NCBI GenBank assembly: GCA_046706745.1
Contig: JBJKPC010000054.1
Span: 15,759-79,758, forward strand
Source of the DNA: Candidatus Kryptoniota bacterium
GTDB lineage: Bacteria > Bacteroidota > Ignavibacteria > Kryptoniales > JAKASW01
Length of the DNA: 64,000 bases
Direction: 5' to 3'
The notes below the pieces were generated by a model that worked only from the letters and a program-made list of their open reading frames with translations, was not told where the DNA came from and did no database searches. A program made the position numbers and the translations under genes. This document shows positions 3,074 to 64,000 of the stretch, in pieces; positions within the stretch are counted from its first letter, which is position 1, and every line of letters begins with the position of its first letter.

Positions 3074-3214
3074 ACCCACTCCTTTCCGGATAATTGCCCG
3101 TTCAGCCGAAAAAGCCCAGAATTGTCATTGGAAAAGATGGCGCAAAGATGCCGCTATTCGACGTCTCCTAATGATCGATCTGGTATCTGATAAAAGACAG
3201 CCCTTGGACTTGGT

Positions 3215-4051: not shown

Positions 4052-4551
4052 CTATTAGTTTCTCCTTCGAAAAGAATCCAGTGTATGATCTGCTTAGAAT
4101 AGGAAATCGCCAACTAGGCCAACGGAGCTGCCGGATCTTCGGAAAATCCTGCGCGAGTACCGCTCCATCATGGAAAAAAGTTAATACCACATCAAAAGTA
4201 AAGCAAGCTGCGCCGGATATTCGAATTCCGTATGAGTCCTCCGGACGACCTTCCTCGCGAAAACAGGACACCTCTCCCATGCATGTCGCAGACTGCAATC
4301 GCTTAGCCGAGCGTTTTTGAGAGAAGACGGGTAGAGCTCTGGATCGAGTCTCGCGACATGCCTATCCCGACCTCCTTAATAACCATTACTCCTATAGGAT
4401 GCACTCGAAGAGCCGGTCTCGTCCCTGCTCGAATATTCACGCATAATCTCAGAAAGACTTGAGGAGTCCCTCCGCCATCCGACTCCGGCACTAGTTGCCG
4501 GTGCAAGGCACAAGGGTCCCTGTAATGGTGGCCTCTCCCTACCTAAGGGTA

Positions 4552-5586
4552 TCAATATATAAGGTTGAATAAATACCCGACCGCGACTATCCCGGCAGCA
4601 ACAACGCCCACAAAGACGGCAATGAGTCTTGGCTTTAGCACTTTTCGCAGGATAACCGTTTCAGGGAAGGAAAGCCCGATCACGGACATCATAAAAGCGA
4701 GAGCGGTGCCCAACGACGCGCCTTTCTCCAAAAGAGCCTGCATGATCGGGATGATGCCCGCAGCATTGGAATAGAGTGGAACCCCGATGAGAACCGAGGC
4801 GGGAACTGCCCACCAGACCGACTTTCCCATTATAGCCGACATGATATCCCCCGGAACGTATCCGTGTATGCCCGCTCCAATTCCGATTCCAGCCACGACG
4901 TACGGCCAGACCTTTCCGACAATATCCCTCACTGATTCGAACCCGTACTGGATCCTAGCATCGAAGTCCATCTCAGTCTGATCCGCCAGCAATTCTCCCG
5001 CTGCCGGATCAGGCCCCTTTACAGTGTAAACCCAATCTTCGACGTAGCCTTCCAGTTTGAGCATACCGATAATGACCCCGGCCGCTATAGCTATGAATAA
5101 GCCGGTCGATATGTAAAGGAGAGCCGTCCCCCATCCAAAAAGGCCAAACAGCAGCACGACCGCTACTTCGTTTATCATGGGGGCGGCGATCAGGAAAGAA
5201 AATGTCGCCCCGAGAGGAACTCCCGCTTCGACAAAACCAATGAATAGTGGAACGGCAGAGCATGAACAAAACGGAGTCACAATTCCGAGGGCACTTCCCA
5301 TGACGTTGCCGACGATAGGCGACCGCTTGCCCAGGATACGGCGGGTTTTTTCGGCGGAGAAGTAACTCCTAACGATGCCCACGAAGAAAACCACTATTAC
5401 CAGAAGCAAGAGCACTTTGGGTGCTTCATAGACAAAGAAAGAAACAGCGCCCGCAAATCGCGCTCCATCTTTTAGCGGCATGAAGGACAGGAACAGATTT
5501 ACCGTCGGTTTGAGGAACCAGAAAGCCGCGAACAGAGCTCCGACAAACAGTACGGCGCGAGCGCGCACCGTGATCTTCAAACTCAT
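4552..5586 (-). CDS. Multi-pass membrane permease (UPF0718/ArsP-like, CSCSAVP motif)
   Basis: Highly hydrophobic 344 aa with 'VTPFCSCSAVPLFIGF'. Its start overlaps the stop of the upstream thioredoxin-like gene by 4 nt. Confidence 0.75.
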   Translation of the reverse strand: MSLKITVRARAVLFVGALFAAFWFLKPTVNLFLSFMPLKDGARFAGAVSFFVYEAPKVLLLLVIVVFFVGIVRSYFSAEKTRRILGKRSPIVGNVMGSALGIVTPFCSCSAVPLFIGFVEAGVPLGATFSFLIAAPMINEVAVVLLFGLFGWGTALLYISTGLFIAIAAGVIIGMLKLEGYVEDWVYTVKGPDPAAGELLADQTEMDFDARIQYGFESVRDIVGKVWPYVVAGIGIGAGIHGYVPGDIMSAIMGKSVWWAVPASVLIGVPLYSNAAGIIPIMQALLEKGASLGTALAFMMSVIGLSFPETVILRKVLKPRLIAVFVGVVAAGIVAVGYLFNLIY

Positions 5587-48194: not shown

Positions 48195-49806
48195 CCTTTA
48201 AGTACTTTACTAGAGGATCGCTTGCGTCGGCCTCCGCATGCTGCTCGCCTTCGACTATGGTGAAGTCTATCGCGACCCTTGCCCCCAGCGTTTTGAGTAT
48301 AGCCTCCTGAATGTAGGACTTGTAGGGCTTTGTCATTCCGATGACGACTTCATTCGGCGCACCGAGCATCAGCCAGCCGTTCTGGACTCCCATGGGTTTC
48401 AGATTGATAAGTTGAGACCAGACGCCGATCCTTTCCTTGCGAACGGCGAGAAGCAACTCGTCCCATCTGACACTTATTTCCTGAAAAGAAGAACCGGTGG
48501 TCAGGTGAACCGGCCTCTCGGGGGTCACCGGTGAAGGGCGGGCAGTTGCACTTCTTTTCCTTTCCGGGTATACCGGGCGGATCTCTTTGACTGACGAAGT
48601 TGAAAAGCCCTCTTTTCCCCCTTGATGAATGTCCTGCCGCGTCCCGAAAGATCCTCCGCGGTCACTCAGGTTTTTTTTTAGCTCGCCGATCTCGCGAAGG
48701 AGTTCCTGAAATTTGACCGCCTTTTCCATATTCACGAGTTGAAGCAGCGTCATCTCGAGTTTGATTCTGGGCTGAGAAACATACTTTATCTGTTGGATGG
48801 ATTCACTCGTGATCTTGAGCATCCTAAGCAGGTCGATTTTGTCGAAGCCTGAAGCTGTCTCAAGATAACGCTTCCTGTAGTCCTCCGAAGCCTCGATCAA
48901 ATCGGCCTTCCCGGTGGTCGAAGCCATAAGCAAATTTCTTAAGTGTTCTGAGAGACCTTCAAGAAAATCGACAGGGTCGTAGCCTTTGGAAATCACTTGC
49001 GCGGCTAGCTCTACCGCTCCCTTCGAATCGCGGCCCGTTATGAGCTCGGTTGTCCGGAAAAAAAGCTCGCTGTCCACAAGGCTGAGGGCATTTACCACTA
49101 TTTCATGCTTCACGTGGTTTCCACAGAAGGCCGCGACCTGGTCGAATATGCTGAGCGCGTCGCGCATGGATCCGTCGCCTTTTTTGGCGATTGTCATGAA
49201 CGACTCTTCGTCGACCGAAATATTTTCCTCCCTGGCAATGAAACGCAGGCGCTCAATAATCTTTTCTATCTCAATTCTCTTGAAATCGAATCTCTGGCAC
49301 CGGGTAAGGATTGTAGGGAGAACCTTGTGAGGCTCGGTCGTGGCCAGAACGAATATCGCATGGGGCGGCGGCTCTTCGAGAGTTTTGAGAAGCGCATTGA
49401 ACGCTTCTTTGGTGAGCATGTGGACTTCGTCGATGATATAGACTTTGTATTTCAGCCGCGAGGGGGAATAGCGGACGGATTCACGCAGGTCTCTAATCTC
49501 GTCAATTCCGCGGTTCGAGGCCCCGTCGATCTCGATAACGTCGAGGCTTCGCCCCTCGGTAACTTCTTTGCACACGTCGCATTCGTTACACGGCTCTCCG
49601 TCTTTGACATTTTGACAGTTGATCGCTTTTGCAAACAAGCGAGCGGTGGTAGTCTTTCCGACGCCGCTCGGGCCGCTGAAGAGATAGGCGTGTGCGATAC
49701 GATTTCGCACAATCGCATTCTTAATGGTTACGGTGACGTGTTCCTGAGCGGTCACCTCGTCGAATCGCATCGGGCGCCATTTACGCGCGGTTACAAGATA
49801 GCTCAT
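48163..49806 (-). CDS. dnaX: DNA polymerase III subunits tau (full length) / gamma (predicted by slippage)
   Basis: 'ARKWRPMRFDEV', 'YLFSGPSGVGKTT', Zn module 'CQNVKDGEPCNECDVC', 'IIDEVHML', 'TRCQRFDF'. Confidence 0.95.
   Translation of the reverse strand: MSYLVTARKWRPMRFDEVTAQEHVTVTIKNAIVRNRIAHAYLFSGPSGVGKTTTARLFAKAINCQNVKDGEPCNECDVCKEVTEGRSLDVIEIDGASNRGIDEIRDLRESVRYSPSRLKYKVYIIDEVHMLTKEAFNALLKTLEEPPPHAIFVLATTEPHKVLPTILTRCQRFDFKRIEIEKIIERLRFIAREENISVDEESFMTIAKKGDGSMRDALSIFDQVAAFCGNHVKHEIVVNALSLVDSELFFRTTELITGRDSKGAVELAAQVISKGYDPVDFLEGLSEHLRNLLMASTTGKADLIEASEDYRKRYLETASGFDKIDLLRMLKITSESIQQIKYVSQPRIKLEMTLLQLVNMEKAVKFQELLREIGELKKNLSDRGGSFGTRQDIHQGGKEGFSTSSVKEIRPVYPERKRSATARPSPVTPERPVHLTTGSSFQEISVRWDELLLAVRKERIGVWSQLINLKPMGVQNGWLMLGAPNEVVIGMTKPYKSYIQEAILKTLGARVAIDFTIVEGEQHAEADASDPLVKYLKDEFGAEPLES
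48671..48679 (-). other. A9 slippery run inside dnaX (codons L376-K377-K378-N379)
   Basis: Minus strand: GAG CTA AAA AAA AAC CTG AGT GAC. The -1 frame reads AAA CCT GAG TGA and the +1 frame reads ACC TGA. Confidence 0.5.
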
Positions 49807-52217
49807 TTCCTTTGGCGTGGTCTCCTGCGGGCACTCACCCGGCCGGAAAACAGATGTTTTGCTGCATCTTCTATCCTGTCCAGAGGGACCACCGTAATTC
49901 CCTCTTTTATTTTATCCGGTATCTCGCTGAGGTCTTTCATGTTATCTCTAGGTATGAGGACCTTCTTAATTCCGTATCTCTTTGCGGCAAGCATCTTTTC
50001 CATCAGCCCGCCAATCGGCAAGACTTCGCCGTTCAGATTGATCTCTCCGGTCATTGCAACATCGTTACGAACCGGCTTCTTGCCGGCGGCTGAGATAAGA
50101 GCTATCGACATCGTCAGACCCGCGGAGGGCCCATCCTTCGGCGTTGCTCCTTCGGGAACATGGATATGAATTTCTTTCCCCTTTTGAAAATTCCTGGGAA
50201 TCCCGAAGTTTGCCGCGTTTGCTCTGACGTATGTAAGAGCGGCTTTCGCCGACTCCTGCATTACATTTCCCAACCTTCCAGTCAACTGTAATCTGTCCGG
50301 ACCTTCCATCAATATTGCTTCGACGTTTAGAATATCGCCACCTCCACTAGTCCACGCAAGTCCAAGAGCAACACCTACGCGCTTTTTCTTTGCGATCTGT
50401 TTCGAATGGAATTTCGGTACGCCCAGGAACTCTTCCACTTTCTTCTCATCGACGACGATGGGAGCAACTCTCTTTTTGCCGCCGTTTCCTTGTTCGACAA
50501 CCTCCCTGGCAATCTTCCTGCAAACTCCCGCGACAGCCCTTTCGAGGTTTCTGACCCCCGCTTCCCACGTGTACCCGCGAATTATTTTCATCAGCGCCGC
50601 ATCGTCGCACTTCGCGTGCTTCGTATCGATACCGTGTGCTTTCAGCTGCTTCGGAATTATGTGCCGTTTCGCTATCTCTATCTTGTCGTAGTCAAGATAG
50701 CCCGGCAGCTCTATAACCTCCATCCTGTCCTGAAGGGGCTCCGGAATATTTTCTCTTACGTTGGCCGTAGTGATAAAAAAGACCTTCGAAAGATCGTAGT
50801 CCACCTCGAGATAGTGATCTTGAAAGGAATGGTTCTGTTCGGGGTCCAGCACTTCCAGCAGCGCTGCTGCGGGATCGCCGTGAAAATCGAACGCAAGCTT
50901 ATCGACTTCGTCGAGGAGCATCAGCGGGTTGACCACCCCCGCTTTCTTCATCGCCTGGAGAATTCGGCCGGGAAGGGAGCCGACATATGTCCTCCTGTGT
51001 CCCCTTATCTCGGCTTCATCTCTTATTCCTCCGAGAGAGAGCCTCACGAATTTCCTTCCGAGTGCACGTGCGATCGACTTTGCCAGCGAGGTCTTCCCAA
51101 CTCCCGGGGGCCCAACGAAACAGATGATCTGAGAGTGCATTTCCTTGACGAGGTTCAGTACCGCTATCTGTTCGATGATCCGTTCCTTCGGCTTCTCCAG
51201 GCCATAATGATCTTCGTCCAGGATTTCCCTCACATGTTTGATATCGAGGTCGTCCTTCGTCTTCTTGTACCATGGAACGTCGAGCAGCCAGTCGAGATAA
51301 TTGCGTATCACGGTTGCTTCCGGCGAAAAGGCCTGAGTTCTTTTGAGTTTGTCCATCTCATCCATAGCCTTGGCCTTGGCCGCCTCCGGCATGTGAGCTT
51401 TTTCGATCTTCTCTTTGAGCTGGGCAAATTCACCCGACGGATTTTCATCGCCGAGCTCGTCCTGCATTATCCTGACCTGTTCCTGCAGGTAATACTTTCT
51501 CTGATTCTTCTGTATACTGTCTTGTACCTTATTGTCGATCTCTTGTTCGATTTTCAGGACATTGATCTCACCCATCAGAATCTTAATGAGCGCCTCGTAT
51601 TGCTCCTGCAGACTCTTCAGGCTGAATATGTTTATCTTTTCCTGAACCGATAGTTCTATATTTGCGAGGATGTAGTAAAACTTTCTGTCAGGCTGCTCCA
51701 TGTTGTCGAACGACATTATGGTCTCCGGAGGCAAATCCCGACTGTTGCGGACGTATTCCCGGAACAGCTGGGCGGAGTGTTTCACGTACGCATCCAATTC
51801 AAGGTTCTTCCTCAGCGAGACCACGTTCGGCACATATTCGGCTTTGACAATTCCTTTTTCCTCGTAAAATTTCTTCACGAAAGCCTGCACCACACCGTCG
51901 ACGAGTACCTTCAACAATCCATTAGGGAGTTTCAGTACCTGCAGTATTCGGGCGACCGTGCCGACTTTGTACAATTCCTCCTTCGCTGGATCCTCAACCG
52001 TGCTGTCCTTCTGAGCAATCAGGAGCACGAACTTATCAGACTTCGCAGCCTGCTCAACGGCCTCAACCGATTGTTCGCGCCCCACGAGGATCGGGAAAAG
52101 CATATATGGAAGGATAAGGGAATCGCGTAATGGAAGCACCGGAAGACGCGTCGGTATGTCTTCGATCTTGCTTATGTCTTCGACTTCTTCAATATCTTCG
52201 AAATCCTTCAAAATCAT
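49803..52217 (-). CDS. lon: ATP-dependent Lon protease
   Basis: 'LPVLPLRD', 'GPPGVGKTS', 'LDEVDK', 'PKDGPSAG' (catalytic Ser). ATGA overlap with the dnaX start. Confidence 0.95.
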   Translation of the reverse strand: MILKDFEDIEEVEDISKIEDIPTRLPVLPLRDSLILPYMLFPILVGREQSVEAVEQAAKSDKFVLLIAQKDSTVEDPAKEELYKVGTVARILQVLKLPNGLLKVLVDGVVQAFVKKFYEEKGIVKAEYVPNVVSLRKNLELDAYVKHSAQLFREYVRNSRDLPPETIMSFDNMEQPDRKFYYILANIELSVQEKINIFSLKSLQEQYEALIKILMGEINVLKIEQEIDNKVQDSIQKNQRKYYLQEQVRIMQDELGDENPSGEFAQLKEKIEKAHMPEAAKAKAMDEMDKLKRTQAFSPEATVIRNYLDWLLDVPWYKKTKDDLDIKHVREILDEDHYGLEKPKERIIEQIAVLNLVKEMHSQIICFVGPPGVGKTSLAKSIARALGRKFVRLSLGGIRDEAEIRGHRRTYVGSLPGRILQAMKKAGVVNPLMLLDEVDKLAFDFHGDPAAALLEVLDPEQNHSFQDHYLEVDYDLSKVFFITTANVRENIPEPLQDRMEVIELPGYLDYDKIEIAKRHIIPKQLKAHGIDTKHAKCDDAALMKIIRGYTWEAGVRNLERAVAGVCRKIAREVVEQGNGGKKRVAPIVVDEKKVEEFLGVPKFHSKQIAKKKRVGVALGLAWTSGGGDILNVEAILMEGPDRLQLTGRLGNVMQESAKAALTYVRANAANFGIPRNFQKGKEIHIHVPEGATPKDGPSAGLTMSIALISAAGKKPVRNDVAMTGEINLNGEVLPIGGLMEKMLAAKRYGIKKVLIPRDNMKDLSEIPDKIKEGITVVPLDRIEDAAKHLFSGRVSARRRPRQRK

Positions 52218-52465: not shown

Positions 52466-54736
52466 ATGAAAATCCGCTTAGAAGATGCGCTTCATTACCA
52501 CTCGAGTGGTCGAAGAGGCAAAGTAGAAGTCGTACCCACGAAGCCATGCGTGACGCAGAGGGACCTTTCCCTGGCATACACGCCGGGAGTCGCTGAAGTA
52601 TGCAGGGTCATCGACAAGAACCCGGATGCGGTTTATGAGTATACCTCCAAAGGGAACCTTGTAGCGGTGCTTTCCAACGGCACCGCAGTTCTCGGGCTCG
52701 GAAACATCGGGCCGTTGGCAGGGAAACCTGTAATGGAAGGAAAAGGGGTCCTGTTCAAGAGATTTGCGGATATTGATGTGTTCGATATCGAGATAGACGC
52801 CAAAACACCGGAAGAGATTATTGCCGTCGCAAAAGCACTTGAGCCGACATTCGGCGGAATCAACCTTGAAGACATAAAGGCCCCCGACTGTTTCATCGTT
52901 GAGCAGACTCTTAAGGAGTCGATGAACATTCCGGTTTTTCACGACGATCAGCACGGGACTGCGATCATAAGTTCAGCGGCTTTGCTCAACGCCCTGGAAA
53001 TATCCGGTAGGGACATTTCAAAAGTTAAAATCGTCGTCAACGGCGCGGGCGCGGCCGCGATTGCATGCACGAAGCTCTACATCAAGCTGGGCGCAAAGAT
53101 CGAAAATGTCCTCATGTGCGACACAAAAGGAGTCATTTACAAGGACAGACCGGGCGCGATGAATCCGTACAAGGAGGAATTCGCGCGAGATACAAATGCG
53201 CGAACCTTGGCCCAGGCAATGGTCGGGGCAGACGTGTTCGTTGGATTATCCGTGGCCAACGTGGTTACGAAGGATATGGTACGTTCCATGGGAGAAAAAC
53301 CTATAGTCTTCGCTATGGCGAACCCGGATCCGGAGATCAGTTATGAGGACGCCGTGGACGCTCGGCCGGACGTGATCATGGCAACCGGCAGAAGCGATTA
53401 CCCCAACCAGGTGAACAATGTCCTGGGTTTCCCGTTCATTTTCAGAGGGGCGCTCGACGTTCGCGCGCGCAACATCAACGATGAAATGAAGATAGCCGCA
53501 GTTCACGCACTCGCACGGCTCGCAAAAGAGCCCGTTCCGGATTCGGTCAAAGTGGCGTATGGAGGCATCGATATGCAGTTCGGCAAGGACTACATCATTC
53601 CGAAGCCGTTCGACCCGAGAGTGATAACTTGGGTGGCACCTGCCGTAGCAAAAGCGGCGATCGAAACGGGAACCGCGAGAGTCAAGATTGACGACTGGGA
53701 TAAGTATGTTTTCCAGCTTGAGGAAAGGATGGGGATTACTCGGAGCGTCGTGAGGACCGCCATAACGAAGTCGCAGGGTAGCGGGATGAGGATAGTGTTC
53801 CCCGAAGGCGGCGAAGCGAAGGTGCTTCACGCCGCTCAGATCATAATCGACGAAGAAATCGCAAAACCTGTTTTGCTCGGCAAGAGATCGCAGATAGAAA
53901 TGAAGGCGCATGAGATGAAGATCGATATGGAAGGTATAGAAGTCATCGACCCTGCGAATTTCGACAAACACCAGGAATATGTGGAAGAGTTCTTCAAGAT
54001 GAGGCAGCGCAAGGGCATGACCCGGGCAGAGGCCGCGAGATATATCGAGAGACCAAACTATCTCGGAGCCATGATGGTGCACATGGGAGACGCAGACGGT
54101 CTGGTCTCCGGACTGACACAATCATATCCCAACACGATCCGACCGGCTCTTCAGGTAATCGGAATGGAAGAGAAGAGAACCAGGGTGGCAGGCTTGTATA
54201 TAGTCATGACAAAACGCGACACCTACTTTTTTGCCGACACGACGGTCAACGTCGATCCAACAGCAGATGACCTGGCCGAGATTGCGATTATGACCGCGGA
54301 AGTCGTCAGGCGCTTTAACATGGTTCCCAGGGTGGCTATGCTCTCGTTCAGCAATTTCGGGAACACGCGTCTGCCGGAGTCGGTCAAGGTACAGCAGGCA
54401 GTTGCTATCGCGCACAGACTCGACCCGACTCTCGTAATAGACGGGGAAGTACAGGCTGACGTGGCGCTGTCTGCAGACGTTCTCGAGGAAGTTTACCCAT
54501 TCTCCTCCCTGAAGAACGGCGCAAACACCTTGATATTTCCGGATTTGAATGCCGGTAACATCGCGTATAAGCTGATGGGGAAGATAGGAAATGCTGCGCT
54601 TCTTGGACCCATCCTCATGGGGATGAAGAAGCCCGTCCACGTTCTCCAACAGGGGTGCGATGTAAATGCCATAGTCAACATTGCTGCGGTATGTGCCGTC
54701 GAAGCCATCGACAAGGTCAAGAACAGCGTACATTAA
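52466..54736 (+). CDS. maeB: NADP-dependent malic enzyme with C-terminal phosphotransacetylase-like domain
   Basis: 'SLAYTPGVA', '[12 protein letters not shown]', '[11 protein letters not shown]', 'ANPDPEI', 756 aa including the PTA-like C-half. Confidence 0.9.
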
Positions 54737-55034: not shown

Positions 55035-55496
55035 TCAGTTTCCCTGTACCCGTAGTAGAGTAGCCCTGAGATCGGTTATCTCTCGTTCCTTCGTTTCGAG
55101 TTGGCTGTACAGGTCCACCAGATGATCGTAGAATTGGTCCTCGAGAAATCGCAATCCGGATATATCTTCAAGTTGAAAAACCATTTGGCGTTTGCAGTGC
55201 TTGAGCTTATACGCCCTTACTCTATAAAATCTGGCGGTTCCTTTCTGCTTCACAGTGCAAACGCTTTCTCCCCGGAGTCTGCATTCCGATACAACTCTTT
55301 GAAAGGTCCCCGAATCCTCGCCCTCGAGAAACCCTTCAACCTGTAATCTCTTTCCATACTCGAGAGTGATTGGGAGCACATCCCTTGAGGCTTGATTCGC
55401 ATAGGTGATCACCAGATTAGGTCCAGTGAGTATCAGCGGCACCCGCAGATCCTCACAAATCCTTTGAAAATCAGATATTATTTCGTTTGAGTCCAC
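55035..55496 (-). CDS. Stand-alone PAS-like sensor protein with C-terminal coiled coil
   Basis: 'PLILTGPNLVITYANQASRDVL...FYRVRAYKL...MVFQLEDISG' is PAS-like; tail 'LYSQLETKEREITDLRATLLRV'. GTG start. Confidence 0.5.
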   Translation of the reverse strand: MDSNEIISDFQRICEDLRVPLILTGPNLVITYANQASRDVLPITLEYGKRLQVEGFLEGEDSGTFQRVVSECRLRGESVCTVKQKGTARFYRVRAYKLKHCKRQMVFQLEDISGLRFLEDQFYDHLVDLYSQLETKEREITDLRATLLRVQGN

Positions 55497-55651: not shown

Positions 55652-56011
55652 CTAATTTCCCAGATAGTCTACTTCGACGCTGGAGACGCCGTCCAGCTGG
55701 CTGGCGGTAAATGTCTTGACTTGCCCTTCATGAAGTTTGTATTCCGCCGGTGCTCCTCCCTTCGTGTCGAGTTGCACCAACACATTACCCGGGCTTGTTA
55801 AGGTGACCGCCGGTACTACCGAGGTCCGATTAATACCGGGAACGGGAGCCGGTGATGCTTTCATCTTCGGCGAGGCAAAGCTGATCCCCGGCGCAGGAAT
55901 CACCGTCAGCCTTACCGTTGCGGTGGCTGTAACTTGTGCCTGGGTGGGAGAGGCCAAAAACAAGTACCCGATCGCTGCAAGAAATAGTGCTATGTACTTC
56001 TGGTTTCTCAT
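55652..56011 (-). CDS. Small secreted beta-rich protein, possible minor fibre subunit
   Basis: Signal peptide MRNQKYIALFLAAIGYLFLASPTQAQ. Mature 'VTATATVRLTVIPAPGISF...' ends '...SSVEVDYLGN*', resembling the termini of the two upstream subunit genes. Confidence 0.45.
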   Translation of the reverse strand: MRNQKYIALFLAAIGYLFLASPTQAQVTATATVRLTVIPAPGISFASPKMKASPAPVPGINRTSVVPAVTLTSPGNVLVQLDTKGGAPAEYKLHEGQVKTFTASQLDGVSSVEVDYLGN

Positions 56012-56233
56012 TGTCTTTGACCAATACTGATACGAAGACAATGCCAAACCTTATTTCACCCGTCAGCATGTCACACCATGCCGTAACACTCGGTAATACA
56101 ATGGGCTACCACACCATCTAGAATACGTCGGCACAAATTTGCTTCGCCGACACATGTCATTATTACCGATTTCCCGGCAGAAATACCTGCGTTTTTGAAA
56201 GGGAAATTGCCGCTTGAAAGGTGAACTCGTTGC

Positions 56234-59200
56234 CTAAGGCAGAGAGATAATCCGGGCCGATGGGTATTCTCCATAAGACCTGATCTTACCCATGGCTGTC
56301 CAAGCCTCTTTCTCCGTACTAAATGTCGGAGTAAATGCTCTGAACTTTAGCCTCTCACAGTCAAAACCAACCAACGCAAGGATTCCTGTTCTCAAGCGAA
56401 AGTCCAGTGCGAACGACCGTGCCTGGCGTTCATGGTCGAATTCAGCCAGCTCGATCGTATAGCGACGAGGAAGGTTCGATTCTCCGTCTATTACTACAAA
56501 TGCGCGGCGAAAACCATGTTCCAGCTCCAGTTTATCAAGGGCCCGAGTGGCTGCCTCATCATTCTTGAACGGTCCTGCCATTACCGAGAAAAGATTTGTC
56601 GATCGTCTGAACCGAACGCTCAAACGTAGATCCGTCTCTTTCAAATTCCTCCGGACGAATTGGCTGGCTTGATCGACCGATGCAAACGCTGCGATCTGTA
56701 CCCAGTATATGTAGCGGGCATGGGGCCTTGTCGTCGAATTGACAAAAGCGTCGAAAAATCCGAACTCATCGATGAAGATAGTGAGCCGCTGAAGGGCCGT
56801 TTGTCTGCTGTCAAACGTGTCGGTCTGTACGACGAAGAGGCCCAACTGCTTGGAGGGCCGTGCCATCAGAATCTGGCCCGTCATGATCCTTGCTCTTTTT
56901 GCCAGGACTTCCGCTCGCTTCCGGGAAACGAACGCTCCGATTTGCACGACATATTTTTCAAGAGGCCGATAGATCTTTCCGGAGCTTTCTTTCAGTTTAC
57001 GCGGAGGAGTCCTCTTTTCAATTTGCTTTAGAATTATCTTGAGGCCTTCCACGAAATCCCCGTTCTTCGTCGGCTTGATGTTGAAATTCAAGATCGCAGG
57101 ATCCGCATATACTCCGAGGACCGAGAGCTGTGTCGAGTCCACGTACGCCTCATACTCTCCCGGTTGCAATCCCATGTAGTAGAAGCTTCCGTCGTTGAAA
57201 ACAGAAACGCTTGTTGTCCTGCCGGTCGATTTGGATTTGATATATAGAGTCAGTCCGGGTACAGACGTCATCTTCGTGCCGGCAAGGCGGAGAACCTTGC
57301 CCTCAACTATCCCCCCGACGAAGAACGGCACGTCGATCCTCTTGTATGAATTGGGATCTGTAATGAACGAGAACGACCTCAGCTTCGGGATCCACAATGG
57401 GTTCCTGATCGAGCTGAGGTCCACATCGGCGCTGTACTGCGTATAAGGAAGAAGATTCCAGTCCCTGATAATCCCATCGGAAGAAGTCTCGCTAGCGACG
57501 GCCTGTCTGAGCGTTACCTCTCCATTCTTAATTATCTCTTCCCCTTTATCGTATTTCCCGTTGCCATTCGCGTCAACGAACATTCTGATCGATGCGGCGG
57601 AGCGCCCGACCCAGGGCAAATTGTTGAATAGAAAGGTCTTATAGTTGCTGTCATACCCTATCGACCCGCTTAAATTCTCGGTATAATATCCCGCGCCGTT
57701 TCGAACTTGAGCACCCGTGGTGGATCTGGTGAACGGAAGATCGGCAATGATCTGAAGGTTGAAAGTAGTCGCTCTATTTATATAGTCGCGTTCTGCAGAA
57801 AAACCTATCCTTATATACCTTAGTACGTTTCGCGAGAGCTGGAACGATATGTCGTCCAGCGAGTTCTTGAGCACACCGTATCTTCCGGTGGCGTTCACAA
57901 GGGTACCGTTCAGAAATTCAAACGGCCCCTGCCCAAAGAACATCGAATAGAGCACTGAGGCGGAGAGCGTATAGTTGTCTACTACATTCGAGTGACCGTA
58001 GTCGATGATGGATTTAAGATAGCCGATCGTTGCGTTTAGCTGGGAAACGCTTGTGGATAAATATGCCGAGTAGTTGTATGCCTTCTGACCAAGAGAGTAT
58101 TCCTGCGCATTACCTGTCGCCCTGAAATTGAAGCTGCTGCCTCCAAGGGAGAACGGAACATACAGGTCTGCCTGTCCCTCCTGAATCTTGAGACTTGGAT
58201 TGTAAAGAAGATTTTCCCGATAACGTGAATACGACAGATCGAAAGCTGCCTGAGAAGCATATAGGGCGCTGAACGTCGATCTGTAAAATGCGAGAGGAGC
58301 CGCGTCGAAACTTATTGTATACTGCGGTCCCAAACGGAGGTATAGGGAATTGTAAAAAAGTGGCTTCGAGAAGTACGGGTTGTCGACATAGTCCACGCCC
58401 ACTTTATCGCTCAGCCAGCTGGTAAAACCGTAAATTACGTTTGCGGACAGGAAATTATAGTTGGTATTGTTCAATTTGCCGCCGCCGACGGTATAGTTCA
58501 CTTCTCCCGCGGGCACAAAGGAAAAAGGGATCTGGAGTCTCCTGTCCACTTCGTTGAATTGGCCGTTGGGACCATAATACTTCAGCTGAATGAATGAAGT
58601 TCCGTAAACCAGCGGGATCGAGAACTGTGCGCGTCCCTGTTTGTCCGCCTTCTTGTAGCCTACAAGCTGCCCGTTCAGGTAAAGTTCGACATCCCAGCCG
58701 GGATTTGTGCTGGCGTGCACAATGTACTGACTGAAAAGCGTTCTGACGGTAAGCGGTTCGTTGGAAACTTGCGCTCCGCGAAAGCCAAATTGTGTCAGAC
58801 CGTTCGAATAGAGATTGCCCAGGCCAGCGTATGTTATGTAGGAGGTGGAGTCGAAAGCATACTTCCAGCTCAGGTCGCTCGAATAGATCTTTGAACCCGC
58901 TCCCGTTGAGGTTCCCAGAAGACTTCCTTCGGTTTCACCGCCGAGGACCTCGCCTCCGCCGGTGAATTGATAAGTGTAAGCAGACTGGTTCCCTCCTGTG
59001 TATGCCGAGAGCGAGTAATCCAGGATCCCCCCGTCCAGCAGATGCCGATGTCGCGGGAATGCGAGCGGCGCCTGAATCAGGTTCAATTCCGGAGAAACCA
59101 CCATGTAGTTCCTCCGTGTTTGTCTCCGATAGTCCTGGAGCACAGGGAGTTCCTTCTGTGTGTTGAGAGCAAGTGAAAGGGAATTGAAATCTACCGTGAA

Positions 59201-59635
59201 ACTGAGTCCGAAGATCGTTTTGAAAAATGAGGGGAGGGCATAGAAATCCAGTGGTCCGATGATGACCTTTGCCGTATCGAATCTGATTCTTCTCCCGCCG
59301 ATCTCGGCAATTCCTTTACTGAAATCTATATCGTACTTATCCGACGCCCTTATGTAAAACCCTTTCAGGGTCTTTGCCCGCATATCGGCAGTCTCGTCTA
59401 TCCTCAGTTGTTTAAAGACCGCCCCGATCGGTATGTATACGGAGTCGCGATAATAATACGCCGTTATGACGGAGTTCACCAGGCCGCTATAACTGAAAGA
59501 GAGAAAAATCTCCTGCTTATTTGAACTCGGGGGAATATCCTGCGCCCACCCTGATGAGGCAAACACGACGACAAGAATCGCAGTCAAAAGAGATTTTTGT
59601 GCGCAGATAAGTAACTCCCGCGTGTTTCTATTCAC
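56234..59635 (-). CDS. Usher-like outer-membrane protein fused to three C-terminal SPOR repeats
   Basis: Signal peptide ...VVFASSGWAQ. About 800 aa of Y/G/S/N-rich alternating beta pattern. Plug-like insert 'WDVELYLNGQLVGYKKADKQGRAQFSIPLVYGTSFIQLKYYGPNGQFNEV'. Two Ig/CarboxypepD_reg-like modules ('IRMFVDANGNGKYDKGEE', 'GIVEGKVLRL...NDGSFYYMGLQPGEYEAYV'). The last 241 aa are 3 SPOR-like repeats. Confidence 0.55.
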   Translation of the reverse strand: MNRNTRELLICAQKSLLTAILVVVFASSGWAQDIPPSSNKQEIFLSFSYSGLVNSVITAYYYRDSVYIPIGAVFKQLRIDETADMRAKTLKGFYIRASDKYDIDFSKGIAEIGGRRIRFDTAKVIIGPLDFYALPSFFKTIFGLSFTVDFNSLSLALNTQKELPVLQDYRRQTRRNYMVVSPELNLIQAPLAFPRHRHLLDGGILDYSLSAYTGGNQSAYTYQFTGGGEVLGGETEGSLLGTSTGAGSKIYSSDLSWKYAFDSTSYITYAGLGNLYSNGLTQFGFRGAQVSNEPLTVRTLFSQYIVHASTNPGWDVELYLNGQLVGYKKADKQGRAQFSIPLVYGTSFIQLKYYGPNGQFNEVDRRLQIPFSFVPAGEVNYTVGGGKLNNTNYNFLSANVIYGFTSWLSDKVGVDYVDNPYFSKPLFYNSLYLRLGPQYTISFDAAPLAFYRSTFSALYASQAAFDLSYSRYRENLLYNPSLKIQEGQADLYVPFSLGGSSFNFRATGNAQEYSLGQKAYNYSAYLSTSVSQLNATIGYLKSIIDYGHSNVVDNYTLSASVLYSMFFGQGPFEFLNGTLVNATGRYGVLKNSLDDISFQLSRNVLRYIRIGFSAERDYINRATTFNLQIIADLPFTRSTTGAQVRNGAGYYTENLSGSIGYDSNYKTFLFNNLPWVGRSAASIRMFVDANGNGKYDKGEEIIKNGEVTLRQAVASETSSDGIIRDWNLLPYTQYSADVDLSSIRNPLWIPKLRSFSFITDPNSYKRIDVPFFVGGIVEGKVLRLAGTKMTSVPGLTLYIKSKSTGRTTSVSVFNDGSFYYMGLQPGEYEAYVDSTQLSVLGVYADPAILNFNIKPTKNGDFVEGLKIILKQIEKRTPPRKLKESSGKIYRPLEKYVVQIGAFVSRKRAEVLAKRARIMTGQILMARPSKQLGLFVVQTDTFDSRQTALQRLTIFIDEFGFFDAFVNSTTRPHARYIYWVQIAAFASVDQASQFVRRNLKETDLRLSVRFRRSTNLFSVMAGPFKNDEAATRALDKLELEHGFRRAFVVIDGESNLPRRYTIELAEFDHERQARSFALDFRLRTGILALVGFDCERLKFRAFTPTFSTEKEAWTAMGKIRSYGEYPSARIISLP

Positions 59636-59687
59636 TGGACCATAAACGACACGTTTGCCCGGAACAGACCTGTAGAAGGTCAGAGGT

Positions 59688-60509
59688 TCAATTTATACTG
59701 AAAGTCATCGACTTGGTTACCGTCGGGACTTTCAACAAGTCCTCAGCAGGTATGTCGCTCCTGTCGGATTCGAGCTTGACCTCAGCAGTATACGTCCCGC
59801 CGTGAAGGTCCGAAAGCGGTATCGCAAATCTTACCACCATGCTGCTCGGGTAGATGGCAAGCACTTCCTGACTGGAGTAGATCGTGCTGCCTGCCGCATT
59901 CTTCACGATTGCATTCATCTTGCCGAAGAACGGCGAGTTCCCTCCGCGTGACACATAAGCGAGCAGGTTCATAGATGCAGAATCCGGAACCGCATGCAAC
60001 CGGGGAATCTCAACGCTCGTATTAACATAGCCTTTCTTGTACAGCACAGTCGTCACCTGTCTGAGGACGAAGGTGATGTTAGCGGTTATGCCTGTTCTAA
60101 CCGTGTCGATGGTTTTGGCCTGCGGGGTTGAACTGGTGATCAATCTCGTCCAGTACTCGCCCTCCGGGATATCGGGAGGAGGGGACACCAGCAGTCTAAC
60201 CGTCTGTTGTTTACCGGGATCGATTATGAATTTCTGCGGAAACCCTCTCAGCCACTGCTGGCAGGAGTGCTCACGAGCCATCAAGCTATCGTCGTACTGC
60301 ATCCGGACATTCCCGACAGAGTCGGATTCCGGGAACCCAAACCTGAATGATATGCTGATCTCCTGAGGCGTGTCTGACCGGTTCATCACGACAAATGTCC
60401 CGAACGGTGACTGGTTGCTCATGAAAAGGATCGTAGGAGCAACGACAACTTGGGCCCGGGACACAGCTACAAAAGACAGGATCAACAACGCGGATAAGAT
60501 CTTCTTCAT
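59688..60509 (-). CDS. Periplasmic two-Ig-domain protein, PapD-like chaperone candidate
   Basis: Signal peptide MKKILSALLILSFVAVSRAQ. 'VVVAPTILFMSNQSPFGTFVVMNRSDTPQEISI' and 'FPQKFIIDPGKQQTVRLLVSPPPDIPEGEYWTRL' follow the chaperone N-domain pattern. A second beta-rich domain follows. Confidence 0.5.
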   Translation of the reverse strand: MKKILSALLILSFVAVSRAQVVVAPTILFMSNQSPFGTFVVMNRSDTPQEISISFRFGFPESDSVGNVRMQYDDSLMAREHSCQQWLRGFPQKFIIDPGKQQTVRLLVSPPPDIPEGEYWTRLITSSTPQAKTIDTVRTGITANITFVLRQVTTVLYKKGYVNTSVEIPRLHAVPDSASMNLLAYVSRGGNSPFFGKMNAIVKNAAGSTIYSSQEVLAIYPSSMVVRFAIPLSDLHGGTYTAEVKLESDRSDIPAEDLLKVPTVTKSMTFSIN

Positions 60510-60548
60510 GGCACCAATTTAAACATTTAGTGGTTATCTCCCAATTGC

Positions 60549-61481
60549 TCAGTAGTTTACTGTCAGGGTAAATGTGCCCGAATAGTTGCCCGGCGCCTGA
60601 TTTGGTGGAACAGGGTCGAGTGACCCACCAAGCCAGAAATAGTAATATCCGGTCGACTGGCGATTTCCGCTCAAGCGAACTCTTTGGCCGGAAGAAATTG
60701 CGGTCGCCCCCGCCTGGTTGGTCGGAATGTCTGTCCCGCTTACACTGGGAGTGAAAGTCAACGTGTTGCCGTGCGAATCGTCCAAGGATGTTGTCGCAGA
60801 GTATGTGACGGTTATGTGTTTGCCGCCGGAGCCAGCCGCCGTGATCTCCGGAGCCGAGCCGCTCTGGGGACTCAATGAGGGAGGCGTTGTACCCGCAACA
60901 ATTAACCCGAAATCCAGCGTACCCGTCGACATTAGCGTAAGCCCCTGGATCACGCTGGATGACAGACTTATGTCCTGACTGGTCTGAAATTGATTGAAAG
61001 GATAGAATGTCCAGACCATAGCATCCACATTGATGGTTCCAGTATAATCCCCCGACGCCTGATTGTTGCCCGGACTGACGGTTCCGCCGATCCATATATA
61101 GAGTGTCAAGGGAGCATTCGATCCTGTAAGAGTTTGATAGCCTGAGCTCGGATCAAAGACCGTGCTCCCGGAGAAACTGTTAGTGGTATTCCATGCGGCC
61201 GAATTTGTTCCAAACGAAACGGGGAGCGAGTAACCTCCCGAGATGAGGGCGGCGGGCAAATTGAAGGTAATGCGGTCGTAACCGTAGCCGCTATGACCGG
61301 GGAATTGGACCTCGATTTCAGCCGCGCCGGGATCGGAAGGTGCAATTGTGTTGCTCGTGCCGCTTATAACCATTCCGAGAGACATGTTCCTGAGAAGTGT
61401 GATGGTGGGTGTCTGCGCGCTGGATTTAACCGCGAAGAGCAGAAGGCAACCGGCAATCAGTATCATTCGTTTGTTCTTCAT
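60549..61481 (-). CDS. Secreted tandem (2x) DUF4402/SCPU-like subunit
   Basis: Signal peptide ...FAVKSSAQ. The first half ends 'ASGDYTGTINVDA'. The second half starts 'LTLMSTGTLDFGLIVAGT' and ends 'APGNYSGTFTLTVNY*'. Confidence 0.6.
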   Translation of the reverse strand: MKNKRMILIAGCLLLFAVKSSAQTPTITLLRNMSLGMVISGTSNTIAPSDPGAAEIEVQFPGHSGYGYDRITFNLPAALISGGYSLPVSFGTNSAAWNTTNSFSGSTVFDPSSGYQTLTGSNAPLTLYIWIGGTVSPGNNQASGDYTGTINVDAMVWTFYPFNQFQTSQDISLSSSVIQGLTLMSTGTLDFGLIVAGTTPPSLSPQSGSAPEITAAGSGGKHITVTYSATTSLDDSHGNTLTFTPSVSGTDIPTNQAGATAISSGQRVRLSGNRQSTGYYYFWLGGSLDPVPPNQAPGNYSGTFTLTVNY

Positions 61482-61656
61482 CCGCGCCGTTCCAAACTTA
61501 ACTCATTTGCTGAAATAAAAACATTGAGTGAGCCGTCGGCTTCGGTGCCATAGTAATCCGGGGATGATTTCACAGAGCACGACATCGTGACCGGTGGTAT
61601 CTTGAAGTTTCCTGATATTGAGGCAGAAGCGAAATTGTGGTGCATAACTAATACAA

Positions 61657-61678
61657 GGCCCGGCATCGCTGCCGAGCC
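61657..61678 (-). terminator. Intra-operon hairpin (9-bp stem, GCGA tetraloop) after the first subunit gene; candidate attenuator/partial terminator
   Basis: Minus strand: GGCTCGGCA-GCGA-TGCCGGGCC followed by TTGTATTAGTTATG, about 60 nt after the stop of 61739-62242. Confidence 0.35.
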
Positions 61679-61738
61679 CCCCTCCTTTGTCCAAAATGCG
61701 CAGGACTCAACCTGCCACTTGTTTCTCAGTTGACGGGA

Positions 61739-62242
61739 TCAGTTGTAGACTGCCGTCAGTGTAAAAGTGCCCGTGTACGTGCCGGCCGGTTCGGAACCGC
61801 CTAAGGTCACGTCGCCGCCGAGCAAGAAATAGAAATGACCGGTGCCGGTGGGGTATGTTCCGCTGAGCTTGTAAGCCGTTCCCGCCACGGCTGCAGTCCC
61901 CGCCGTTGTACCGTCGGTGCTTTCGACCAGGTTCACATCGAACGTTACGTTGTTCCCGCTTCCGTCGGAGAGCGTCACCGTACTCGGGAAGGCATTTAGC
62001 TCGAATGTCGCACCAGAAGTTCCGGAGACATCGAATTTAGCCCCCGCAGTCGGGGCAACTGGCGTAAGAGCACCGGTAGTTCCTGTCACGACGTTGCCGA
62101 AGTCGACGGCTCCCGTGACGTTCATCTGCATTCCCTCGAGCATCTGCAGGGAAATATTCGCAGAACCCTGCGCAGTTGTCTGTCCAAATGACAATGCAGC
62201 GGTGGTCAGCACGATCGCGCCAACGAGCATTAATTTCTTCAT
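61739..62242 (-). CDS. Secreted single-domain DUF4402/SCPU-like subunit (candidate major fibre subunit)
   Basis: Signal peptide MKKLMLVGAIVLTTAALSFGQ; 'VTGAVDFGNVVTGTTG', 'GHFYFLLGGDVTLGGSEPAGTYTGTFTLTAVYN*'. First gene of the operon; AGGAG lies 9 nt before the ATG. Confidence 0.65.
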   Translation of the reverse strand: MKKLMLVGAIVLTTAALSFGQTTAQGSANISLQMLEGMQMNVTGAVDFGNVVTGTTGALTPVAPTAGAKFDVSGTSGATFELNAFPSTVTLSDGSGNNVTFDVNLVESTDGTTAGTAAVAGTAYKLSGTYPTGTGHFYFLLGGDVTLGGSEPAGTYTGTFTLTAVYN

Positions 62243-62286
62243 CGCATGTCTCCTGTAAGTTGTTATATCCGAAAGATTTCATTCTA

Positions 62287-62306
62287 TTCTTCCCTGAAGG
62301 GAAGAA
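62287..62306. promoter_or_regulatory. Perfect palindrome TTCTTCCCT-GA-AGGGAAGAA in the leader of the fibre operon
   Basis: 9-nt arms with a 2-nt spacer, 45-64 nt upstream of ATG 62242. Adjacent CTCAA-C-TTGAG palindrome (62317-62327) and a 14/15 long-range inverted repeat (62307-62321 / 62399-62413). Confidence 0.4.
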
Positions 62307-62864
62307 CCGCCAAACGCTCAACTTGAGTTGTTTCTTTTGTCGTCACCTCCTAATTAACAAGCTTCGTGCCGTAAATGGGACTTTAGATAGGTTCCAGATT
62401 GAGCGTTTTGCGGCCAGTAATGAGAATTGGGTTACGATTTCGTAATGCAGTTCCTGCGGAATGTAATGCATTATGATTCAGTGGGTTGCGGGTCAATCGA
62501 AGCCTTCATAGGCATTGGAGCAAATCTTCTCGACTTCCAGAACCGACCGGGAGAAGGCATCGATGGCGTTTGCTGACAACGTCGCCAGACGGATACCCAC
62601 GCCGATTCGTGGTTTCGTGAGATCCGATTGACCGGAGACAATTGAAGGAAGGAATCTACTGGAAAGTTCACCCATGTCTTTCCTGAACGATCGGTCACCC
62701 TAAGAAATTTCGCAACAATGGTATGAACTTCGGGGCAAGCACCAAGTCCTTCTCCTCGCTGCCACGAACGTGGTCCTTCAAACAAGACGCAACGGTCGAG
62801 GCCAAGCCCTGTCGGCGGACATAGGCAGACTCACACACTTCGACCCCCTACGGCCGAAAGCCTT

Positions 62865-64000
62865 TTACTGCAGCCTGATGGTCCGTATTGATGCGTCGAA
62901 AGGAAAAGAAATCTGTACCAGGTTGCCGCGGAGATTTTTCACGGTGCCTTTGAAGGACTTTCCGTCTCTTGCCGTGGCCTCGGCACTTCGTACAGGCTTG
63001 GACATTTTCAGTCGAACGGCAATCTCTTTGTACGCCGGCTTGAAACTCCCCTCGTTCGTGAACTCGATTTCAGCACCCATTCCTTTTCTCTTCATCGATA
63101 CTTCCATATTGAGATACTCGCCCCGACGAAAAGCATACGTTTCCCCGTCATCGAAATAAGCTTTGCCTTCCGCGTCTGTCTCCCCGTACGCTCTGAGATA
63201 AAGCGTATCCGCCTGTTCGCTTGTGGACTGGATATGGCTCTGCGTGAAGAGTACCGTCCCCTCCCTTACGAAGACCGGTGTAACTCCCAGCGGCGCTTCA
63301 ACTTCGTGCCATCCTCCGTGCAGGTCGGCGCCGCCGTCGATGCTCGTCCAGTCTCCAGCAGGCAGGTAGACTTTTCGCCTTACGACTCCGGAATCTAAAA
63401 CCGGTGCAACGAGGAGCTTGCTTCCGAAAGTAAACTCGTTGTCTAATTTGTAAGCTTGGGCATCGTGCGGAAAGTCGATGTAGAGCGGCCGGACGATCGG
63501 CAGACCGGTTTCATGGGCAATTCTGAATGCCGTATAAATCTCCGGCATCAACTCGTATCTGCGGTCGATAGTCCTGCGATTTATCTTCGTATACTCCGGG
63601 CCGAACACCCAGGGCTCACGCGGCTTCGAGTCTTTGGTGCTGTGGGTTCTGAAGAATGGCGTAAACGTGCCGAGCTCAAGCCAGCGCGTGTAAAGTTCGG
63701 CGGACGGGTTCCCGACGAAACCTCCGATGTCGCTGCCTACGAAAGGCTGCCCGCTCACCCCGATGTTCAGGAACATGGCCAGGGCGAGTCTCAGATGGGC
63801 AAAGCTCGCGAAGTTGTCACCTGTCCACATCGCCGCGTACCGCTGTCCGCCGGCATAGTTCGCGCGTGTAAGAACGAACGGGCGTTTCCCTGGCCGGAGC
63901 TTTTCGACACCGTCGCGCGTTGCCCTCGCCATCTGCATCCCGTATGCGTTGTGTACTTCGTAGTGTTCCACCGTATCGCCGTCGATATCCTGCAGGACAT
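62865..64000 (-). CDS. Glycoside hydrolase family 31 (alpha-glucosidase-like), C-terminal part; continues past right edge
   Basis: 'RPFVLTRANYAGGQRYAAMWTGDN', 'GQPFVGSDIGGF', 'FFRTHS'. The frame stays open from 63971 to 64000 (...VLQDIDGDTVEHYEVHNAYG). Confidence 0.85.
   Translation of the reverse strand, partial: VLQDIDGDTVEHYEVHNAYGMQMARATRDGVEKLRPGKRPFVLTRANYAGGQRYAAMWTGDNFASFAHLRLALAMFLNIGVSGQPFVGSDIGGFVGNPSAELYTRWLELGTFTPFFRTHSTKDSKPREPWVFGPEYTKINRRTIDRRYELMPEIYTAFRIAHETGLPIVRPLYIDFPHDAQAYKLDNEFTFGSKLLVAPVLDSGVVRRKVYLPAGDWTSIDGGADLHGGWHEVEAPLGVTPVFVREGTVLFTQSHIQSTSEQADTLYLRAYGETDAEGKAYFDDGETYAFRRGEYLNMEVSMKRKGMGAEIEFTNEGSFKPAYKEIAVRLKMSKPVRSAEATARDGKSFKGTVKNLRGNLVQISFPFDASIRTIRLQ

Follow-up and report, generated by a model that had tools for sequence, protein, structure and literature searches.

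The window described here is a stretch of 64,000 nucleotides (nt) on contig JBJKPC010000054.1 of a Candidatus Kryptoniota bacterium. It carries a run of five minus-strand genes, named A to E in the direction of transcription, which encode two subunits of the Pfam family DUF4402 (A and B), a periplasmic PapD-like chaperone (C), an outer-membrane usher with a tail of SPOR repeats (D) and a small secreted protein (E). We regard the locus as probably an assembly system for surface fibres of the chaperone-usher type, belonging to a deeply divergent lineage that has so far escaped annotation. Among the adhesive fibres of Gram-negative bacteria, none are understood better than chaperone-usher pili.

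An earlier note, made from the sequence of the window alone, had listed the five genes as secreted-protein genes on the minus strand, and all five were confirmed (Table 1). The ATG start of E is backed by the alignment of its homologues. Among the other open reading frames (ORFs) of the window none resembles A to E, and the overlapping long ORFs in other frames (e.g. 60286-61095) are without support.

Table 1. Features of the locus, with positions counted from the first nucleotide of the window (aa, amino acids)
Feature	Position (nt)	Strand	Length or residues (aa)	Description
Gene A	61739-62242	minus	167	DUF4402 subunit; signal peptide, ~25-aa alternating-hydrophobic N-terminal extension, DUF4402 core, C-terminal ...GTYTGTFTLTAVYN
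Hairpin	61655-61680	minus		GC-rich; within the 257-nt gap 3' of gene A
Gene B	60549-61481	minus	310	Two-domain DUF4402 subunit
B, N-domain	~61014-61415	minus		Without N-terminal extension
B, linker and C-domain	~60552-61013	minus		Extension retained
Gene C	59688-60509	minus	273	Periplasmic PapD-like chaperone
Gene D	56234-59635	minus	1133	Outer-membrane usher with SPOR tail; GTG start
D, N-terminal domain	59156-59515	minus	41-160	From the model
D, barrel	57641-59047	minus	~197-665	24 strands (DSSP on the model)
D, plug-like insert	58526-58738	minus	~300-370	After strand 6; six strands
D, two C-terminal beta-sandwiches	57023-57601	minus	~679-871	From the model
D, three SPOR-like repeats	56237-56953	minus	895-1133	Beta-alpha-beta-beta
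Gene E	55652-56011	minus	119	Small secreted protein; mature N-terminus QVTATATVRLTVIPAPG, C-terminus VEVDYLGN
PAS-like gene	55035-55496	minus	153	Downstream neighbour of E

Chaperone C and usher D

C was modelled with AlphaFold2 from 32 homologues (predicted local distance difference test, pLDDT, 88.6). In a Foldseek search of the PDB the top matches of the model are overwhelmingly chaperones of chaperone-usher systems, the best of them being EcpB (E=8.9e-10), with CfaA, CsuC (template modelling (TM) score up to 0.58), YadV, Caf1M, PapD and FimC among the others. The matches span 231-280 aligned columns, which corresponds to both domains. They come from all three chaperone groups described so far (classical, alternative and archaic), and the three groups lie within about two orders of magnitude of each other in E-value. 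At the level of the model the two-domain PapD-type chaperone fold, which the earlier note had suggested from two beta-rich domains and a PapD-like pattern in the N-domain of C, is established.

PapD_N is the commonest weak Pfam match within the C family (11 of the 32 members). Relatives of C encoded on proteobacterial plasmids, which match the C-family profile at 1e-10 to 3.5e-16, pass PapD_N with 25.3 and 34.3 bits, so that not only the fold but also the sequence ties the C family to PapD-like proteins. Several homologues of C are already labelled automatically as 'P pilus assembly chaperone PapD' (Joint Genome Institute (JGI), UniRef) or 'fimbria/pilus periplasmic chaperone'. In alignments with hhalign the best chaperone sequence match of the C family is EcpB (E=1.4e-3, P=17%), with FimC at P=0.9%. 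Searches of C and of the C-family profile against PDB sequences gave no chaperone, usher or pilin match.

Every one of the 32 C-family sequences has two arginines, R105 and R122. By alignments of low probability, R105 lies in a 'VRL' strand common to FimC and EcpB, and R122 (YWTRL) in the next strand, read as F1, where FimC has Asn and EcpB the motif RYYRIVW. Y240, in the penultimate strand of domain 2, is nearly invariant. The conserved segment GITANITFVL, with hydrophobic residues at alternating positions, stands behind a flexible loop of 19 residues (130-148) and would fit the G1 donor strand. The classical positions Arg8 and Lys112 of PapD numbering are occupied in the C family by Thr/Pro and Gln, with Thr26 facing the FimC Arg, in an hhalign alignment of low confidence; the G1 segment of the family has no invariant Lys, and Q151 is conserved instead. 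In archaic and alternative chaperones the classical Arg/Lys pair is absent, and the hallmark is an Arg in F1 (Arg89 of CsuC and EcpB) that pairs with a Tyr of domain 2; the archaic anchor is also described as an Arg in F1 plus a Tyr/Arg pair of domain 2, and the F1 Arg of non-classical chaperones anchors the carboxylate of the subunit (PMC4654587). The WxL-interacting protein of Enterococcus faecium (PDB 9i1y, 9i25) matches the C model about equally well as the chaperones do.

D was likewise modelled with AlphaFold2 (68 homologues, pLDDT 87.8). The order of strands in the model is six strands (residues 200-291), the plug-like insert (300-369) and eighteen strands (379-662). The plan of PapC and FimD consists of six strands, a plug between strands 6 and 7, and then eighteen strands. 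When the model was searched with Foldseek against the PDB, the top 17 matches were all FimD or PapC, the best being full-length FimD (E=1.1e-31, 917 columns), with up to 938 columns among the 17; the nearest non-usher barrels followed at about 1e-6, 25 orders of magnitude weaker. The proposal of an usher with a plug-like insert and two C-terminal modules was thus borne out.

The most conserved stretch of D, WDVELYLNGQLV, lies within the plug-like insert. An hhalign alignment of the usher core with FimD/HtrE/SfmD (E=3.3e-5) is collinear between residues 196-543 of D and 178-583 of FimD, and sets WDVELYLNGQLV on the FimD segment AQVTIKQNGYDIY, which we take to be part of the FimD plug. P0052, a relative of D with 31% identity, passes the Pfam family Usher with 33.8 bits (cut-off 27.1), and its match covers the region before and including the plug. 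Against PDB sequences D gave no chaperone, usher or pilin match, only its SdrD-like and SPOR parts being matched.

D itself has no match to Pfam Usher, and it is annotated merely as 'SPOR domain-containing protein'. Both facts would suit a peptidoglycan-anchored porin or structural protein with a generic barrel likeness to ushers, in which case C, A and B would be unrelated periplasmic Ig-like (immunoglobulin-like) proteins. This alternative is already disfavoured and appears very improbable to us. The top 17 fold matches are ushers only, over up to 938 aligned columns, the strand plan with its plug is that of an usher, the hhalign match and the Usher match of the relative both fall on the plug region, and D is strictly syntenic with a PapD-fold gene at every locus examined.

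The C-terminal tail of D had been expected to hold three SPOR domains. Two of the repeats pass Pfam SPOR (PF05036, gathering cut-off 21 bits) with 31.4 bits (repeat 1) and 49.9 bits (repeat 2), whereas the third reaches only 13.3 bits and is degenerate, with the same secondary-structure pattern. The profile of D also matches the SPOR structures of CwlC and FtsN. The ligand of SPOR domains is peptidoglycan with denuded glycan strands. As the tail follows the second C-terminal sandwich, it is expected to be periplasmic, where it might tether the usher to the cell wall or guide it to places at which the wall is being remodelled. Relatives of D carry TPR or OmpA domains in place of SPOR, which supports a generic role in envelope anchoring.

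The first C-terminal sandwich of D opens with a loop of the pattern FVDxNxNGxYDxGE (residues 684-697, ~57545-57586, minus strand). D688 of this loop is invariant, N690 is present in at least 90% of the sequences, and the loop gives a sub-threshold match to Pfam SdrD_B. By its sequence it resembles a calcium-binding loop.

DUF4402 subunits and the proposed fibre

A and B both pass Pfam DUF4402 (PF14352, IPR025514; gathering cut-off 25.2 bits), A with 32.3 bits and B with 52.2 bits in two stretches, one per half; 25 of 27 relatives pass it as well. An early L-D-F-G...V..G-T strand, a W/F-L-G-G motif and a G.Y.GT..LT..Y strand that ends the protein are common to the 27 single-domain homologues in their alignment. 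A and the N- and C-domains of B are mutually alignable along their full length. Of the shared plan that the earlier note had drawn for A, both halves of B and E, the part on A and B is upheld by Pfam and by the alignments, whereas E shares one strand only. The pattern had been assigned to DUF4402 or spore coat protein U (SCPU, PF05229). The DUF4402 half of this assignment stands, while the link to SCPU is weak: A and B give no SCPU match, and only three of the 27 DUF4402 relatives give SCPU matches, all below threshold (best E=8.4e-4).

No match to Pfam Fimbrial (PF00419) was found for A, B or E, none to Pfam FimA or Mfa among the proteins of the locus, and no useful NCBIfam match for any of the five proteins. 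The DUF4402 profile found nothing among PDB sequences. One DUF4402 protein bears the JGI label 'Mat/Ecp fimbriae major subunit', which was considered and rejected: EcpA can be aligned with DUF4402 over the signal peptide only, and the protein so labelled matches DUF4402 alone.

Single-domain subunits carry about 22-28 alternating-hydrophobic residues ahead of the LDFG strand, e.g. ANISLQMLEGMQMNVT in A. The two-domain subunits comprise B and ten orthologues at other loci, and in nine of these 11 proteins a script placed the LDFG-like motif 10-12 residues past the predicted cleavage site; for a tenth the script returned an offset of 21, yet it also reads short. The linker before the second domain of B holds the same kind of segment as the single-domain extension. 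The gene for the two-domain subunit adjoins that of the chaperone. A is a candidate for the major polymerising subunit, because it is first in the operon and has the single-domain form, and B is a candidate tip subunit. A short N-terminus is the layout expected of a tip subunit, which goes into the fibre ahead of all others and can do without a donor strand.

E has no Pfam match and is undetected by the DUF4402 profile. An hhalign comparison of E with DUF4402 gives P=63%, with an alignment limited to the signal peptide and the first beta-strand-like segment, so that its assignment as a DUF4402 subunit is unsupported. Its donor-strand-like N-terminus and conserved C-terminal YLG(S/N) make E a candidate minor, terminator or anchor subunit, a role that we offer as a guess.

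The signal peptides of A to E all end in a small residue followed by Gln, with cleavage sites SFG/Q, SSA/Q and TQA/Q in A, B and E (the slash marks the cleavage) and no lipobox Cys. The Gln at +1 is nearly invariant among homologues from loci labelled Kryptoniota and Ignavibacteriota. According to the Q-rule of Bacteroidetes, the Gln that signal peptidase I leaves at the N-terminus cyclises to pyroglutamate (PMC5837995), and the rule is reported to be strong in Ignavibacterium album. The small-residue-plus-Gln ends, which had been listed as a common mark of the five genes, are indeed present in all of them, but they are a lineage-wide trait and no evidence for a pilus system. Their occurrence here suggests that the Q-rule may extend to Kryptoniota.

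What is observed is that C and D have the modelled folds described above, that A and B belong to DUF4402, that D carries SPOR repeats and that the gene order is conserved. From these observations we infer the following course of assembly, whose mechanism would most likely be conventional. A, B and perhaps E would be exported by Sec and cleaved at the small-residue/Gln sites. In the periplasm C would capture each DUF4402 subunit, anchor its G.Y.GT..LT..Y strand in the cleft between the two chaperone domains and lend its alternating-hydrophobic G1 strand (GITANITFVL) to the subunit. The C-terminal strand of the subunit is the part that chaperones anchor (PMC4654587). The chaperone-subunit complexes would then dock at usher D, a gated barrel of 24 strands with a plug, where the N-terminal extension of the incoming subunit would displace the chaperone strand of the previous one, and the fibre would be extruded. 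B would enter first as the tip, since its N-domain is without an N-terminal extension, A would build the shaft, and E may terminate or anchor the fibre. The SPOR repeats would tether or localise the machine on peptidoglycan, as TPR or OmpA domains may do in the relatives that carry them there. Donor-strand complementation and exchange fit the locus because of the protein-ending strand of the subunits, the pattern of N-terminal extensions, and the Arg/Tyr residues and GITANITFVL of the C family.

Instead of pili, a machine of this kind might also build a surface layer or coat in which the DUF4402 proteins do not form fibres. Spore coat protein U of Myxococcus is reportedly deposited by the Mcu system, and the weak SCPU likeness of the subunit family, a count of DUF4402 paralogues that varies between 1 and 6 from locus to locus, and an usher that may be tethered to the cell wall would agree with such a product. 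We hold a coat to be improbable: the tip-like character of the two-domain subunit agrees with linear polymerisation, as do the N-terminal extensions, the sequence offers nothing specific for a sheet, and to our knowledge every chaperone-usher product studied structurally is a linear polymer.

Several points weigh against the assignment of the locus to fibre assembly by a chaperone and an usher. Matches to the PapD-like and Usher families of Pfam had been expected for C and D. C reaches 14.2 bits with PapD_N (E=0.043; cut-off 23 bits), and D, as given above, has no Usher match, a family matched by only two of its 117 relatives. Because both proteins are below these cut-offs themselves, while relatives of each pass, their homology to chaperones and ushers rests on predicted structures and on the relatives. 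The N-terminal domain and the C-terminal sandwiches of D give weak Pfam hints of Cu_amine_oxidN1, SdrD_B and CarboxypepD_reg, and may be non-homologous to PapC_N and PapC_C. The equivalence of R122 to the F1 Arg and the missing R8/K112 pair are tentative, as the alignments behind them are of low confidence. The fibre, the chaperone-subunit complex and the incomplete Ig fold of the subunits are read from sequence patterns. E has no detectable pilin relation beyond one strand, and the gaps that flank E and the PAS-like gene (222 nt and 155 nt) mean that these two genes may be separate transcription units.

Distribution and relation to described systems

Alignment of the chaperone led to 28 genome loci, and all 28 keep the order of one to six DUF4402 genes, chaperone and usher. 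Their labels are Candidatus Kryptoniota, Ignavibacteriota/Ignavibacteriales and Bacteroidota/Bacteroidetes, together with one unclassified "bacterium" and one metagenome-assembled genome of Chromatiales. In C, identity reaches 72-75% with the closest loci, which bear the labels Candidatus Kryptoniota or uncultured Bacteroidota. The order is also kept in the further loci L027, L030, L031, L035 and L036. The earlier note had proposed a survey of DUF4402 neighbourhoods; in the loci reached through the chaperone, as well as on plasmids, chaperone and usher genes are co-conserved with DUF4402 genes. Of the five genes then expected to be conserved together, the DUF4402-chaperone-usher set extends across phyla, while E is kept downstream of the usher in about 20 loci, all Kryptoniota-like.

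The module was read on plasmid p2 of Novosphingobium sp. ES2-1 (L030) and on plasmid 2 of Polaromonas sp. JS666, and usher-like matches were found on plasmids of Sphingopyxis and Pseudoalteromonas (matches only). Its spread includes plasmids of Alpha-, Beta- and Gammaproteobacteria, so the proposed confinement of the class to a non-proteobacterial diderm does not hold. When plasmids were searched by tblastn with D and with a related chaperone, nothing came up apart from systems of the DUF4402 type and a single Yersinia chaperone of the classical kind. In RefSeq the plasmid chaperones are labelled "molecular chaperone" or "fimbria/pilus periplasmic chaperone" and the ushers "hypothetical" or "carboxypeptidase-like regulatory domain-containing". 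In L030 an ORF of 327 aa (7565-8548) directly after the usher matches the DUF4402 profile at 9e-6; the PLSDB gene table is incomplete and does not include this ORF, which may be a missed gene for a two-domain subunit. Its position is presumably that of csuE in the csu operon.

The module is further present in Salegentibacter sp. 24 (L035), a cultured flavobacterium. In this locus a gene for 1198 aa (1856-5452) without Pfam match separates the chaperone-like gene from the last DUF4402 gene and could encode a large adhesin or an added component. One Kryptonia genome (4.57-Mb contig; P0017, P0073, L036) carries two paralogous systems, one with a SPOR-tailed and one with a TPR-tailed (YbgF-like) usher.

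The tails of the ushers vary. Among 117 listed homologues about 62 have SPOR, 12 have TPR (YbgF-like), two have OmpA, and many have none; an OmpA tail is also found at the Chromatiales locus. In public annotation the ushers of this family appear as "SPOR domain-containing", "carboxypeptidase-like regulatory domain" or "hypothetical". Searched on its own as a profile, the usher core matched at least 3,017 cluster representatives out of 1.84 billion at E<=1e-30, and 6,426 when the limit was E<=1e-10. The clusters were formed at 50% identity; the best 150 matches cover nearly the full profile.

Three groups of chaperone-usher systems have been described, classical, alternative and archaic. With the classical systems (FimC/FimD, PapD/PapC) the locus shares the usher plan, FimD and PapC being the best structural matches of D. 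Sequence identity to them, in contrast, is only 12-14%, the Arg8/Lys112 pair of classical chaperones appears to be absent from the C family (low-confidence alignment), and the subunits are not Pfam Fimbrial. We know of no classical usher with a peptidoglycan-binding tail.

The alternative systems (Ecp, CFA/I) provide the top fold matches of C, EcpB and CfaA, and an Arg motif in the strand read as F1 occurs in both (RYYRIVW in EcpB, YWTRLI in C). The subunits show no detectable relation, EcpA aligning with DUF4402 over the signal peptide only, and the alignment of EcpC with D is weak and confined to the C-terminal domain (E=0.037). Alternative systems are reported to be restricted to Beta- and Gammaproteobacteria.

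The archaic systems (Csu, CupE) follow the same operon logic of subunits, a two-domain periplasmic chaperone and an outer-membrane usher, and common to both are small beta-rich subunits with an aromatic-containing C-terminal strand. The chaperones of both have an invariant Arg in the strand read as F1 and are without the classical Arg/Lys pair, as far as the low-confidence alignment can be followed. A subunit-like gene also stands after the usher here (E). In the csu operon this place is held by csuE. Phyletic spread is broad in both. On the other side, the subunits are DUF4402 here and SCPU in archaic systems, C, at 273 aa, exceeds the archaic chaperones in length and has some 19 residues of loop ahead of G1, and the usher goes unrecognised by Pfam Usher and bears SPOR, or TPR or OmpA in relatives, after the second C-terminal domain. 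Hosts here include Kryptoniota, Ignavibacteriota and Bacteroidota, while the published range of archaic systems is Proteobacteria, Cyanobacteria and Deinococcota.

The locus could accordingly be a very divergent member of the archaic (sigma) class (Csu, CupE, Mcu), in which DUF4402 would be a drifted SCPU and only the occurrence at phylum level would be new. The three DUF4402 relatives with weak SCPU matches (best E=8e-4), CsuC among the best fold matches of C (TM up to 0.58), the invariant Arg of the putative F1 strand as a non-classical hallmark and the standing of the archaic systems as the phylogenetically broadest class all speak for this relationship. It is set against the facts that A and B pass DUF4402 and not SCPU, that D and all but two of its 117 relatives lack an Usher match, that the NCBIfam models match none of the five proteins, and that the fold search with C does not separate archaic, alternative and classical chaperones, all of which lie within about two orders of magnitude in E-value. 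We judge membership in the archaic class rather unlikely.

It is conceivable, although we would not go so far as to call it likely, that the DUF4402-linked systems form a fourth major chaperone-usher branch, ancient and very widespread, and distinct from the classical, alternative and archaic ones. If so, the branch would comprise at least 3,000 usher clusters across the Fibrobacteres-Chlorobi-Bacteroidetes (FCB) superphylum and Proteobacteria, its ushers would commonly be tethered or localised by fused peptidoglycan-binding modules (SPOR, TPR/YbgF-like, OmpA), and the phyla related to Bacteroidota would gain a second, unrecognised type of pilus besides type V.

The type V pili of Bacteroidota (FimA/Mfa) occur in the same superphylum and are adhesive strand-exchange fibres. 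Type V pilins are made as lipoprotein precursors, are processed by a protease, and are assembled with no usher or PapD-like chaperone. The subunits described here have, in contrast, signal peptidase I sites (A/Q) and lack a lipobox Cys, and their genes stand together with those for a chaperone and an usher.

A literature search found no paper mentioning DUF4402, PF14352 or IPR025514, and none joining "outer membrane usher" with "SPOR domain". For chaperone-usher systems together with Ignavibacteria, Kryptonia or Bacteroidota, none was found among the matches listed. The type of machine is familiar; new are the subunit family, the architecture of a putatively wall-tethered usher, the spread across phyla and the large size of a family that has gone without annotation. 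Of what the earlier note proposed as a possibly undescribed class, only the usher and the system as a whole had gone unrecognised, the relatives of the chaperone being labelled as PapD-like already.

The family extends the range of the pathway, published for Proteobacteria, Cyanobacteria and Deinococcota, to Kryptoniota, Ignavibacteriota and Bacteroidota, and gives DUF4402, a domain of unknown function, a testable role. An usher fused to modules that bind the cell wall, of which we found no description, bears on the load that a pilus takes up under pulling force, or on the placement of pili on the cell. Cultured carriers exist in Salegentibacter sp. 24, Algoriphagus ratkowskyi, Polaromonas sp. 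JS666 and Novosphingobium sp. ES2-1, and the gap in annotation could be closed by a new profile model.

Neighbouring genes and the intergenic hairpin

The PAS-like gene lies directly downstream of E in about 20 loci, again only Kryptoniota-like ones. Its protein gives a weak PAS match (E=0.0028) below the Pfam cut-off. From this position the gene may be linked in regulation to the proposed pilus operon, and its membership in the system is uncertain. Three further ORFs flank the locus and were read by eye: a Lon-protease-like one (49803-52217, minus strand), one with the look of an NADP-malic enzyme and a PTA-like C-terminal half (52466-54736, plus strand), and one resembling a glycoside hydrolase (62865-63971, minus strand). 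None of the three has an evident link to a pilus locus.

Scans for sigma-70 promoters and terminators stayed at background level, with models that are unsuited to this lineage. The hairpin between A and B has a stem of 9-11 bp and no T-run, and the regional fold z-score is only -1.0 (terminator scan, RNA fold). It is possibly an intra-operon attenuator or a stabiliser of the mRNA, and could in this way raise the ratio of the major subunit over the products of the downstream genes.

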